In this document: in pieces, positions 2,467 to 57,110 of the stretch | How the letters are laid out: the number at the start of each line of letters is the position of its first letter | Numbering within the stretch: position 1 is the first letter of the stretch | Source: Gammaproteobacteria bacterium RIFCSPHIGHO2_12_FULL_39_24 | GTDB taxonomy: Bacteria; Pseudomonadota; Gammaproteobacteria; Coxiellales; Coxiellaceae | Assembly (NCBI GenBank): GCA_001802455.1 | Contig: MGXZ01000020.1 | Span: forward strand, 32,742 to 96,741 | Reading direction: 5' to 3' | Length of the DNA: 64,000 nucleotides | The notes under the pieces: model-generated | What the model saw: the letters and a program-made list of their open reading frames with translations, nothing else | Database searches by the model: none | Told to the model about the DNA's origin: nothing | Position numbers and translations under genes: made by a program

Positions 2467-2480
2467 TCATTGGTTAAAAA

Positions 2481-2605
2481 TGAATTAAGCGCTGACAATT
2501 TGCATTCGTTCGTAGCCGTCACAACACCCTTGTTTTTCGTGAACATGACACAAAAACAAGGGATCTTGCAACGGCTTCTCACTACTTTAATTAGCGCTTA
2601 ATTCA
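2481..2605. repeat. Palindromic MITE/REP-like element, copy A (125 bp)
   Basis: Terminal inverted repeats are TGAATTAAGCGCT (2481..2493) and AGCGCTTAATTCA (2593..2605). The central hairpin is CCCTTGTTTTT / AAAAACAAGGG around the core TTTTTCGTGAACATGACACAAAAA. It lies in the 154-nt gap between two co-oriented genes. Confidence 0.85.
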
Positions 2606-2620
2606 CATTAGACAATCTAT

Positions 2621-7507: not shown

Positions 7508-7749
7508 TAGTTACCTGTTGTTATACCAATTCCATTAAACGTTCGTTTTTTGATTTTTCTTTAGCGCGGCAAATTCAGCATCCTACCTCATCTTGCCTAA
7601 AATTAATATCCTTGTTAACCTTGTCAGGAGTTTTTTGTAAAAAACAAAATAAAACAATATGTTATGTCTATTTCATCGATAACCTCCTGATTTAATATTT
7701 TCAAAAAAGATAAAATATTATCTGTATTTGATATAGAATTATGCTATAA

Positions 7750-20301: not shown

Positions 20302-20442
20302 CTTAAATGCGAATTAAGAGCTGAATTTGCATTTACTCGTGGGCGACTGGGGGGTACTTGTTTTTCGTGAAAATGACACAAAAACAAGCACACCCCAATT
20401 TCCCGCTCGCGCTTTTAATTTTGCTCTTAATTCGCATTTAAG
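20302..20442. repeat. Palindromic MITE/REP-like element, copy B (141 bp)
   Basis: It has perfect 20-bp terminal inverted repeats, CTTAAATGCGAATTAAGAGC (20302..20321) and GCTCTTAATTCGCATTTAAG (20423..20442). The core is TTTTTCGTGAAAATGACACAAAAA. It fills most of the 193-nt gap between two co-oriented genes. Confidence 0.9.
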
Positions 20443-20466: not shown

Positions 20467-21141
20467 TTATTTAGCAACCGACTCCCACTTTGTTTCCACT
20501 GTTTTTAACAAAGGATGCGAAACCAGCAAATGCCAAATCACTCCCTGAAACGCTTCTGCATGCGGCGTTGTATGTGATGCATTATCCACGGGTATTAACA
20601 CACAGGCATCTGCCATTTTTTTAGTATATCCGCCATCACGACTCACAATACCAACAATTTTTGCTTTTCTATCAACAGCCAGTTGAATAGCAAAAACCAA
20701 ATTAGGGCTCACATTTTTTTCTACATTGCCGCCACCCACTGAGAGAATAAAAATAGCGTCACGTTCATTTAATTTGCTAACTACCAACCAACTTGAAAAT
20801 GTGGTCTCCCATCCTTCATCATTGGTTCTGGCGGTTAATTCAGAAACATTATCCGTTGGCGCGTAAGCTTCCATACCCACAATTTTTCGAAAATCATTAA
20901 CGGCATGTGATGCATTAGCAGCGCTACCACCCACACCCAAAATAAAAAGACGACCATTATTTTTTTTCACGTCTGCAAGAATGCGCACCATGTTTTCAAT
21001 AGAGGCAACATCTAATTTATCAATGACTGTTTTTGCTTCGGCTAAAAATTGAGATGAAAATGTCATGGTTTTATTTCCTGTATTAATTTTGCGAATAATG
21101 GATCTTGCATCCGTTCGTTTATTTTTGTGAATTTTTATCAT
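20467..21141 (-). CDS. gmhA: SIS-domain sugar-phosphate isomerase (phosphoheptose isomerase-like)
   Basis: 224-aa ORF with LGVGGSAANASHAVNDFRK, typical of GmhA-type SIS proteins. It has an N-terminal extension of about 30 aa. Confidence 0.65.
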   Translation of the reverse strand: MIKIHKNKRTDARSIIRKINTGNKTMTFSSQFLAEAKTVIDKLDVASIENMVRILADVKKNNGRLFILGVGGSAANASHAVNDFRKIVGMEAYAPTDNVSELTARTNDEGWETTFSSWLVVSKLNERDAIFILSVGGGNVEKNVSPNLVFAIQLAVDRKAKIVGIVSRDGGYTKKMADACVLIPVDNASHTTPHAEAFQGVIWHLLVSHPLLKTVETKWESVAK

Positions 21142-21164
21142 ATAAGCCTGCGGGGAATCCGACT

Positions 21165-21223
21165 ATCGCAACACCCCATCGTTCTCGTCTTAAAAGACTC
21201 ACCCGATGGGGAAGTGTTGCGAT
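21165..21223. repeat. Imperfect hairpin / possible degenerate palindromic element
   Basis: ATCGCAACACCCCATCG (21165..21181) pairs with CGATGGGGAAGTGTTGCGAT (21204..21223) with a 2-nt bulge. No U-tract follows on the transcribed strand, so it is not a canonical terminator. Confidence 0.5.
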
Positions 21224-21278
21224 GTCACCTCCTCGGCTTTTGAGGAAAAATTCAAAAAATGCTCTCACTTCTTCAGCA

Positions 21279-22001
21279 TTATTCGCATTTTAAATGCATC
21301 GGTATATACCTTGAAAACGCTTCAATGCCTTCCGCAGAACCAATTTCATAAAATCGATTTTCAACTTCATAACTGGCCAATTCATTTCGCGATAATAATG
21401 CTTGATAGAGTTGCGCCAAATCAAATTTTTTTTCCTTCTTTTTTAAATCAAATGCCTTTTGATTAAAAATTCCAAGCCCATAATCGATATAATGCATATC
21501 ATCCGTTTTATTTAATTTATCGTATACACTGATTTCATTGTTTTGGTAAACAATATTACTCTTGTCCCCTTGATCACGATTATGATAAATGGTCATCAGT
21601 GATAGTTTTTTTGAAGTCACATATTTTTTTTGAACAGCTGCGAAATCACAATCAAGATAAGAATCCCCATACATAACAAAAAAATTTTCTGATTCAACAA
21701 CCGATAAAGCGTTTTTCACAGCACCTCCGGTTCCCAGTAATTGTTCTCCATCCAACGAATAACGCACATCCACATTATATTTTTTACCATCTCCAACCTG
21801 TTGCATAATGGAATCACATAAATAACCCAATGACAAAATAACTTTCGTAATACCTTTATTGCGTAATAACGTGAGTTGATAATCAATAAAGGGTTTTCCA
21901 TGAATAGAAATTAACGATTTCGGTATTGTTTTTGTGACGGGATAAAGTCGTGTGGCTAAACCACCCGCTACAATAATCATTGGAAAAAGCGTATTCGTCA
22001 T
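21279..22001 (-). CDS. Sugar-1-phosphate nucleotidyltransferase (HddC-like)
   Basis: 240-aa ORF with IIVAGGLATRLYPVTKTIPKSL. It has a 4-nt overlap with the upstream kinase gene. Confidence 0.8.
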   Translation of the reverse strand: MTNTLFPMIIVAGGLATRLYPVTKTIPKSLISIHGKPFIDYQLTLLRNKGITKVILSLGYLCDSIMQQVGDGKKYNVDVRYSLDGEQLLGTGGAVKNALSVVESENFFVMYGDSYLDCDFAAVQKKYVTSKKLSLMTIYHNRDQGDKSNIVYQNNEISVYDKLNKTDDMHYIDYGLGIFNQKAFDLKKKEKKFDLAQLYQALLSRNELASYEVENRFYEIGSAEGIEAFSRYIPMHLKCE

Positions 22002-28344: not shown

Positions 28345-29388
28345 TTATGATTTTACTAATGACACAATGGCCTCTTTGGTCGATGCAACCGTGGGATAAT
28401 AAAATTGTTCTAAATCAGCGCCAGCCGGTGAAGGACAGGCTGGTAAACCCAACCGTTTTACAGGTGCTTTCAAAAATGAGAAACCTTTTTCAGCAGCAAT
28501 AAAACCAATTTCAGCACACACACCACCAACAGCCCAACCTGTATCCACCACCAACAAACGACCTGTTTTTTTAAGCGACTCTAAAATAATCGTTTCATCT
28601 AATGGTTGGATAGTGCGAAGGTCAATCACATCAGCGTGAATATTTTTTTCTTTTTCTAATTCATTTGCGGCCGTCATTGCCAAATCGATTGCTTGTGATG
28701 CGCCTACAATAGTGACATCATTTCCGCGTCGACGATAAACACCTTTGCCCAATGGAATTTCATACGCTTCCGTTGGCACAACACCGGTTCTCTTCATCAA
28801 CCAACGATGCTCAATAATAATAGCGGGATTATTATCATTAATTGCCGAAATCATTAATCCTTTGACGTCATATGGTGTACTCGGCATCACAATTTTTAAA
28901 CCGGGAACACCTAACAATAAACCTTGAATCGCTTGTGAATGTTGCGGACCTGATCCCCACCCTCTTCCAATCGCAGCCCAAATTACCAGTGGTACGGAAT
29001 GTTGTCCGTTGTCCATCCAATGAATTTTTGATGCGTGATTGACTAATTGATTAAACGTTAATAATAAAAAATCAGGACGATTATGAAAATAAACAGGACG
29101 CATGCCTGTCATTGCAGCGCCGACACAAATTCCCGTCATCCCTTCTTCAGAAACCGGTGTATCAAAAACACGTGCAGCGCCATACATTTCTTTAAAACCT
29201 TTTGTGACACCAAACATGCCGCCTGGATCATCAACACCTTGACCCAATAAAAAAACTTTTTTGTCTTCATCCATTTTGTATGACAATGCTTCGCGAATCG
29301 CTTCAACGCTGCCGATCACACGACCATCCTGATTTACCGGGTCTTTTTGTTCGGCATTCGCAACCACTAATTTTTCATCCCACAACAT
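28345..29388 (-). CDS. ThDP-dependent 2-oxoacid dehydrogenase E1 component, beta-subunit-like
   Basis: 347-aa ORF with transketolase-like pyrimidine-binding and C-terminal domains (FDTPVSEEGMTGICVGAAMTGMRPV). Confidence 0.85.
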   Translation of the reverse strand: MLWDEKLVVANAEQKDPVNQDGRVIGSVEAIREALSYKMDEDKKVFLLGQGVDDPGGMFGVTKGFKEMYGAARVFDTPVSEEGMTGICVGAAMTGMRPVYFHNRPDFLLLTFNQLVNHASKIHWMDNGQHSVPLVIWAAIGRGWGSGPQHSQAIQGLLLGVPGLKIVMPSTPYDVKGLMISAINDNNPAIIIEHRWLMKRTGVVPTEAYEIPLGKGVYRRRGNDVTIVGASQAIDLAMTAANELEKEKNIHADVIDLRTIQPLDETIILESLKKTGRLLVVDTGWAVGGVCAEIGFIAAEKGFSFLKAPVKRLGLPACPSPAGADLEQFYYPTVASTKEAIVSLVKS

Positions 29389-46312: not shown

Positions 46313-46513
46313 ATGAATTAAGCGCTGATTTCTTTACATCCGCTCGCAGATGATATAACTGCTTTAAACATCTGAATGCTTGCGGGTGACTTGGGCATAT
46401 CTATTTTTCGTGAACATGACACAAAAATAAATATGCCCAATTTCCCACTCGCTTGAAAGTTTATCAAAGCAGTCATATCATCACTCACTACTTCAAGTCA
46501 GCGCTTAATTCAT
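46313..46513. repeat. Palindromic MITE/REP-like element, copy C (201-bp long form)
   Basis: Terminal inverted repeats are ATGAATTAAGCGCTGA (46313..46328) and TCAGCGCTTAATTCAT (46498..46513). A nested imperfect inverted repeat pairs 46349..46369 with 46459..46482. The inner perfect 10-bp stem TTGGGCATAT / ATATGCCCAA flanks the core TTTTTCGTGAACATGACACAAAAA. Confidence 0.9.
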
Positions 46514-56853: not shown

Positions 56854-56965
56854 GAGTTTTAGTCCTTTTATCAAAATCAAGATGGGTAACTATAACGATT
56901 TCATTTATGAACTGCAATTAATGTGTGTTCCAAATGAGTAATCGATGTTTTTTTGGTATGCGTAA

Positions 56966-57110
56966 GTGAATTAATAAAGAACCGCGCATGAGTGCGAAGC
57001 ACTAAATAAGCGGAGCAGAAAATCATTACTCACATCCGCTCGCTATGCTCGCGGTTCCGTACTGTTACACTGGCGCAAACTATGTCTCACTTTATTTAGT
57101 GTGTTGAACG
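56966..57110. repeat. Possible degenerate relative of the palindromic element family
   Basis: It contains GTGAATTAA (similar to the family terminus) and ACATCCGCTCGC, which is identical to 12 nt in copy C. It also has imperfect inverted repeats (GAACCGCG / CGCGGTTC; CACTAAATAAG / CTTTATTTAGTG). The conserved core is absent. Confidence 0.3.

Follow-up and report, generated by a model that had tools for sequence, protein, structure and literature searches.

What are the palindromic repeats that occupy gaps in a large surface-glycan locus of an uncultured Coxiellaceae bacterium, and did they arrive there by insertion or do they belong to the operons around them? We addressed this question in a 64,000-nt stretch of DNA, hereafter the window, which belongs to contig 20 of a genome that measures 1.59 Mb, has 39% GC and is assembled in 27 contigs. 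The best named relatives of the host's SufB are from groundwater Gammaproteobacteria and Coxiellaceae MAGs, with 82% identity to Paracoxiella and 79% to Coxiella burnetii. A sequence-only reading of the window had described the repeats as non-autonomous mobile or REP-like elements with a conserved core and covarying stems. Our analysis shows that the three repeats are copies of a previously undescribed MITE family, with about 20 copies in the genome of this groundwater bacterium.

Results

Three palindromic copies in the window

Palindromic copies were found at all three places where the sequence-only reading had put them, and in each of them the terminal motif occurs twice, the two occurrences being inverted with respect to each other. 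The 24-nt core that it reported, TTTTTCGTGAAMATGACACAAAAA, was matched exactly in all three copies, where 100 shuffles gave an expectation of 0. Boundaries were corrected as given in Table 1. Copy A lies between two co-oriented minus-strand genes; its ends (ATGAATTAAG...CTTAATTCACAT) are slightly decayed, as is its target duplication. The ends of copy B (ATGCGAATTAAGAGC...GCTCTTAATTCGCAT) are intact. The type C copy has the same ends and core as A and B, an extra outer stem, and an inner part homologous to type B. Copy B had been credited with perfect 20-bp terminal inverted repeats, of which 16 bp are true repeat but the other 4 bp are the target duplication TTAA; because TTAA is itself palindromic, the inverted repeat looked longer than it is. 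The three copies do share one orientation within the window, but both orientations occur genome-wide. No transposase is present in the window, as the sequence-only reading noted, and the assembly also lacks a cognate one.

Table 1. Elements and their parts in the window, and lengths of gene junctions that are filled in the host genome.
Feature	Position in window	Strand	Details
Type A MITE copy (copy A), 129 bp	2480..2608	+	92-96% identity to 5 other A copies
Copy A 24-nt apical core	2533..2556	+	8-bp stem, one bulged C, 7-nt loop AACATGA
Left TTAA, 4-bp target-site duplication of copy B	20303..20306	.	
Type B MITE copy (copy B), 131 bp	20307..20437	+	95-97% identity to 4 other B copies
Copy B 24-nt apical core	20361..20384	+	A at position 12 (variant)
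Right TTAA, 4-bp target-site duplication of copy B	20438..20441	.	
Type E MITE copy, ~200 bp	21089..21288	+	Ends (A)TGCGAATAAT...ATTATTCGCAT; at least 8 genome copies; without the 24-nt core
Type C MITE copy (copy C), 201 bp	46313..46513	+	83-98% identity to 7 other C copies
Copy C 24-nt apical core	46404..46427	+	
Rrf2-sufB gap			138 nt here; 11-75 nt in congeners
rodA-mltB gap			156 nt here; -4 to 65 nt in five congeners
amgK-murU gap			192 nt here; -4 to 37 nt in six congeners
Gap at site of copy B (gmhA to transaldolase-like gene)			193 nt here; 118 unrelated nt in G006

Copy number and placement in the genome

Searching the whole genome for the core returned 18 exact and 2 near copies, spread over 12 contigs and both strands. 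Sorting by blastn gave three subfamilies: 6 copies of type A (~130 bp, 92-96% identity), 5 of type B (~131 bp, 95-97%) and 8 of type C (~201 bp, 83-98%). Two diverged A-like copies have an apical loop about 20 nt longer and are ~78-80% identical to A, and the genome also holds one internally deleted copy of 64 bp and several solo ends. Short (129-205 bp overall), without coding capacity for a transposase and dispersed in about 20 copies, these elements match the description of MITEs.

Where do the copies lie? Fourteen of 19 are between co-oriented genes; 9 of these face the genes as the window copies do and 5 face the other way, a split that is not significant; the remaining five have convergent or divergent gene pairs on either side. 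Outside the window, the other 17 copies adjoin unrelated housekeeping genes such as sufB, rodA, murU and rpe.

A few structural details accompany this distribution. The motif C(C/A)(G/C)CTCGC stands ~30-35 nt from each end in all MITE types. Because it has the same orientation on both arms, it gives the stem a conserved mismatch of pyrimidines. The 64-bp copy (C20:97088-97151), just beyond the right edge of the window, looks like a deletion between two such direct repeats. At the right end of type A, TTAAT repeats resemble a PmrA box. Two type C copies on contig 8 share a ~530-bp repeat that includes their left flank, and a 78-nt stretch of the window (7535-7612) is 87-88% identical to C8:24861-24938 and 29005-29082, beside these same copies. 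Another repeat of ~125 nt, at 56956-57080 of the window, recurs at least 6 times on other contigs, where the copies are 72-85% identical.

Target-site duplications and empty sites

The elements end in ATGCGAATTAAG...CTTAATTCGCAT, and terminal inverted repeats (ATGCGAATTAAGMGC...GCKCTTAATTCGCAT) are present in all subfamilies. Exact 4-bp direct repeats flank 9 of the 20 copies in the host genome (TTAA three times, TAAA twice, and TTCA, TGAA, TAGA and TTGA once each), and most other copies are off by 1-2 positions. Exact 4-bp duplications also occur at 6 of 9 copies of a related family in G004, a congener, and at the single copy in G006, another congener. All of them have the form TNNA, which has a background frequency of 8.7%. 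By chance, an identical pair of 4-mers at such spacing is expected in 0.8% of copies in the host genome; a binomial test computed for at least 10 of 20 gave ~2e-16, and the 9 of 20 observed are still far beyond chance. Since TTCA, TAAA, TGAA, TAGA, TTGA and TTTA are not palindromic, these are direct repeats and not extensions of the inverted repeats.

Comparison with congeners, the second check on mobility, showed empty sites: four gene junctions that are filled here lack the element in related species (Table 1). At the site of copy B, one further congener, G007, has an additional gene. Contigs from four independent groundwater and soil metagenomes break at the element, where depth rises ~12-fold, and some of them join type A flanks to the common core, which independently confirms the repeat. 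Among the DNA contigs of these four metagenomes we found no joint that skips the element and no polymorphic empty allele.

Some insertions touch the ends of genes. Two type A copies (C2:72709-72717 and C13:110941-110949) are inserted at TGAA, the TGA being the stop codon of the upstream gene, which is amgK-like in one case and Rrf2-like in the other. Several further ORFs terminate within element termini.

A candidate parent insertion sequence

Which transposase could have moved these elements? In G005, a congener, the terminal repeat is matched four times, each time less than 100 nt from the end of a contig, as is typical of a repeat that has collapsed in assembly. When metagenomes were scanned with the end sequences from G005, a contig (Ga0210006_1000107) was found that joins two G005 contigs through a 981-bp element (L093:4689-5669) from the population of this congener. 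The element has the same 19-bp terminal repeats and a single ORF of 300 aa. The ORF matched PF13612 (DDE_Tnp_1_3) with 48.3 bits against a cut-off of 27, and also PF01609; against NF033520, the NCBIfam model of the IS982 transposase, it scored 127.1 bits with a cut-off of 130 (E = 7.8e-37), and the runner-up models, all IS5, reached at most 42 bits. This transposase has thousands of homologues, mostly on 1-kb contigs. Two copies of the 981-bp element have the 4-bp flanks TATA and TCAA, swapped between the copies, which fits a 4-bp duplication after which the copies recombined with each other, or else an assembly that is chimeric.

A size of ~1 kb with one ~300-aa IS982-type DDE ORF fits the description of the IS982 family (PMC7335449). 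Inverted repeats of that family begin 5'-AC(N)6T(N)5TT (PMC7335449), whereas the repeat of the candidate parent begins 5'-ATGCGAATT, which agrees in the T at position 9 but has AT in place of AC at its start. We therefore label the parent IS982-like. It has only the terminal ~20-26 nt in common with the MITEs, so that descent of the MITE interior from the 981-bp element is not established.

The 27 contigs of the host genome contain no homologue of the L093 transposase. Mobilization was thus either historical or dependent on a copy that was not binned, two cases that a metagenome-assembled genome cannot separate. The sole DDE_Tnp_1 transposase of the assembly belongs to an IS5-like element of ~880 bp (C13:87882-88762; L148:1134-2013) whose inverted repeats are 23 nt long (TTAAGAACCTGTCGC...) and whose ORF is broken into pieces of 201 and 78 aa. 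We rejected its gene (C13:88249-88705) as a partner of the MITEs because it is IS5-like, has unrelated ends and is frameshifted. Taken together, the terminal inverted repeats, 4-bp duplications, ~20 copies, empty sites and parent-type IS strongly support the proposal that the elements are non-autonomous, mobile and MITE-like.

A long hairpin with a nearly invariant tip

Every element folds into one long hairpin, with z scores of -7.6 to -9.6; the transcribed strand of copy B, at -64.8 kcal/mol, has z = -9.6. The core forms the tip, in which T5 and A5 arms surround GTG/CAC, one bulged C and a 7-nt loop. The core is also the most faithfully kept part of the element, with mismatches within subfamilies at 2 of 456 positions as against 179 of 2528 elsewhere (Fisher p = 3e-11).

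The stem covariation reported between copies is real. Across 69 pairs of the C subfamily, 97.5% of cells are paired, and 10 pairs have changed on both sides, where shuffles gave 4.9 and none of the 500 came as high. When types A, B and C are compared with the G006 copy and a G004 relative, 11 of the 21 pairs of the apical stem show compensatory changes. Even an insertion in the terminal repeat of the G006 copy is compensated, GAATTACTGAGC being paired with GCTCAGTAATTC. The covariation had been taken to argue for a selected hairpin; the covariation stands, but by itself it does not prove selection of an RNA hairpin. Template-switch correction of quasi-palindromes can mimic covariation. It is possible that the hairpin features reflect selection of master copies for a single-stranded hairpin, or, for the compensated pairs, such correction. 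Template-switch correction would, however, leave the strand asymmetry and the invariant loop unexplained.

That asymmetry is marked. In 18 of 19 copies the more stable fold is that of the strand with UUUUUGUGUCAUGUUCACGAAAAA, the complement of the core as written here; G-U pairs give this strand a mean advantage of 10 kcal/mol. The advantage is unchanged whichever way a copy faces its neighboring genes, and it is thus a family trait inherited from master copies, not the result of selection site by site.

What else might the core or the hairpin be? Scanning five loci against Rfam 15 gave only microRNA-precursor matches far below threshold, and any long hairpin gives such matches. Scans for promoters and terminators found nothing above shuffles inside the elements, and the three window copies neither contain nor border on an intrinsic terminator, in the sense of a GC-rich stem with a run of T behind it. 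Inspection by eye led us to reject the core as a CRP/FNR-type or IHF site, since the spacing of half-sites is unfit and there are no other genomic sites. Small ORFs starting at the ATG of the loop were rejected too, since their frames differ by subfamily, the frame in copy C of the window soon meets a stop, and a ribosome-binding site is lacking.

Ends and interiors in sister species and sister families

How far does the hairpin extend beyond this genome? A covariance model of the apical 83 positions, run against all 64 genomes of the family, found the module in three genomes of one genus, at 22 loci here, 4 in G004 and ~20 in G006. The same model found none in 56 other genomes of the family, in agreement with the DNA search, and a scan of reference genomes for the core returned one G006 contig and nothing else. 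The sequence family is accordingly as new as it had looked, having been found in only three genomes of one genus and being without a match in Rfam, but the kind of element is not, since both IS982-derived MITEs (PMC9769881) and MITEs of Coxiella (PMC5896051) have been described.

The congeners differ in what the module is joined to. In G004 it has a core variant, TTTTCGTGAACACGCCACAAAAA, and different terminal repeats (CTCYGYACACGACAA...). The related copies in G006 (~20) differ in their apex and lack outer ends of the IS982-like type. G006 also has a single type B copy, at a site that is not orthologous to any copy in the host genome. It lies just upstream of a giant open-ended ORF of >1726 aa (L021, JABDDR010000044.1, 1541-6718), and JABDDR010000044.1 has no other sequence in common with the host genome. 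Conversely, G004, which is 58% complete, has 42 matches to the terminal repeat. These make up more than 20 copies of an element of ~188 bp that agrees with the family here in its ends and the subterminal ~35 nt but not in its interior, and G001 has a related family with variant ends. The occurrence of ATGCGAATTAAG ends on other interiors, and of the module on other ends, implies that ends and interior reassort. From these comparisons, the module appears to have reassorted among at least three kinds of terminus in three species: ATGCGAATTAAG here, CTCYGYACACGACAA in G004 and none such in G006.

The host genome itself has two sister families that start with ATGCGAA, types E and F. At its right end, the type E copy of the window (Table 1) overlaps the last codons and the stop of the nucleotidyltransferase-like ORF that lies upstream. 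Downstream is a SIS-isomerase gene, whose ORF at its longest extends into the same copy; the real start of this gene is probably 21066. Type F, a third family, is found at G000:C3:317-513, C20:26454-26649, C22:89258-89389 and C8:28753-28910, with ends ATGCGAACCA...TGGTTCGCAT; its interior resembles that of the abundant ~188-bp family of G004.

Discussion

How did these elements spread? We consider it very probable that an IS982-type transposase, supplied in trans, moves them. In this model, the IS982-like DDE enzyme would recognize the ~19-bp terminal inverted repeats (ATGCGAATTAAGMGCTGA) and insert the elements at TNNA sites, duplicating 4 bp. The L093 transposase, or a close relative of it, is the likely agent. 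Because the assembly has no cognate transposase, we infer that the copies in the host genome are now stranded. The hairpin module would be a separable part carried along by the mobile ends, and any effect on expression would be a by-product.

Plain decay of a MITE does not predict two features of the family, the near-invariance of the core and the compensated stems. Is the interior then more than passive filler? It is possible, but on balance we doubt, that the palindromic interior with its near-invariant 24-nt apex is a separately selected hairpin module. The ~10 kcal/mol better folding of one strand suggests that the module acts in single-stranded form, as DNA or RNA. It may be that the module juxtaposes the two ends of an element that is shorter than the persistence length of DNA and so promotes its own mobilization; alternatively, it may act on transcripts.

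A rival explanation is that the host has adopted the hairpin, or selection has kept it, as an RNA element within operons, where it would serve as an exonuclease barrier or a processing site, so that the genes before and after it are expressed at different levels. In a transcribed operon, such as those of the window, the element would form a very stable RNA hairpin, and at -50 to -90 kcal/mol such a hairpin could plausibly affect mRNA decay or processing. The stability of the fold, the compensated stems and nearly invariant core, the 14 of 19 copies between co-oriented genes, and the fact that the better-folding strand is the transcribed one in all three window copies are consistent with this idea. 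However, the genome-wide orientation of 9 against 5 is not significant, and the strand asymmetry is the same in either direction, as expected of a trait inherited from master copies. Moreover, the elements have no terminator-like or promoter-like sites above background and belong to no Rfam family, and sister species with the same operons have empty sites. We therefore regard adoption by the host as unlikely, and IS982-type transposition as the better account of the family.

The elements could also be REPs or REPINs spread by a RAYT (Y1/HUH), or targets of IS1111/IS110 elements like QMITE2 of C. burnetii, given their palindromic build, the position of the copies outside genes and a host in the Coxiellaceae, where QMITE2 is known (PMC5896051). 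This is highly improbable. The host genome had no match to PF01797 (RAYT) or to PF01548 and PF02371 (IS110 family), while controls matched, and 4-bp target duplications and IS-type terminal repeats are not features of REPs. When five genomes of genus g3 (probably Coxiella) were searched by pattern and by model, the core and the ends were both absent, and they were not found in the genomes of other families that were searched. The "REP-like" alternative of the sequence-only reading is therefore not supported. Finally, that the elements are conserved, non-mobile leaders or intergenic regulatory sequences of glycan operons, as the single orientation of the window copies in the gaps of one large surface-glycan locus might suggest, has practically no chance of being right, because copies elsewhere stand beside unrelated housekeeping genes in both orientations, and the target duplications and empty orthologous sites refute it.

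How do these MITEs compare with known systems? REPINs are dispersed hairpin-forming repeats in which complementarity of the stem is kept across copies. To our knowledge, REPs and REPINs depend on a RAYT and do not duplicate their target. The elements described here are likewise dispersed and hairpin-forming but, unlike REPINs, they have no RAYT in the genome and do have 4-bp duplications. Correia elements (NEMIS) of Neisseria are MITEs of ~100-155 bp with terminal inverted repeats, in a genome without a cognate transposase, and are often co-transcribed with flanking genes to form mRNA hairpins. They have a TA duplication, outward promoters and an IHF site at their center, and RNase III is known to cleave the hairpins of their RNA; in contrast, the family described here has 4-bp duplications and no promoter-like sites above background.

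The closest parallel to the proposed origin comes from a Cardinium endosymbiont of Oedothorax gibbosus, in which MITECca01 and MITECca02 derive from ISCca4 of the IS982 family (PMC9769881). Like these, our elements are short, lack a transposase, have inverted repeats that match those of a ~1-kb element, of the IS982 family in Cardinium and IS982-like here, and have spread in many copies through a small genome in a lineage-specific manner (PMC9769881). The Cardinium MITEs are ~240 bp and lie beside intact parents in the same genome (PMC9769881), whereas here the candidate parent was found in a sister species only. The family described here further differs from them in an interior that is a long palindrome with an invariant apex, in its three subfamilies, and in a parent repeat that starts with AT rather than AC.

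Within the same bacterial family, C. burnetii has two palindromic MITEs (150-400 bp) that are mainly intergenic or overlap the 3' ends of ORFs (PMC5896051). QMITE1 is 300-400 bp long and has IHF sites and repeats of 2-4 bp; in QMITE2 the direct repeats are 7-11 nt long, given as 7-9 bp in the main text of the paper, and IS1111 targets its GTAG REP (PMC5896051). Neither has been assigned a transposase, both are thought to be stranded, and transcribed copies have been proposed to affect neighboring genes (PMC5896051). Judged by these published descriptions, our family is set apart by its 4-bp TNNA duplications, its IS982-like ends and the lack of an IS110-type gene.

What does this mean for the Coxiellaceae? 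Several related MITE families colonize environmental members of the family, as in C. burnetii, and one of them is now linked to a plausible transposase partner on the basis of shared terminal repeats, while the QMITEs of Coxiella are still without one. The only sizeable gaps in the tightly packed operons of the glycan locus are insertions and not regulatory leaders, and annotators should therefore distrust ORF starts and ends that run into these elements. The elements also break short-read assemblies, which makes them relevant to binning and strain tracking. The modular hairpin with its conserved tip is the sole feature that goes beyond what is ordinary for a MITE family. With an invariant apex, compensated stems and swappable ends, the family is well suited to the question of whether selection acts on the interior of a MITE.
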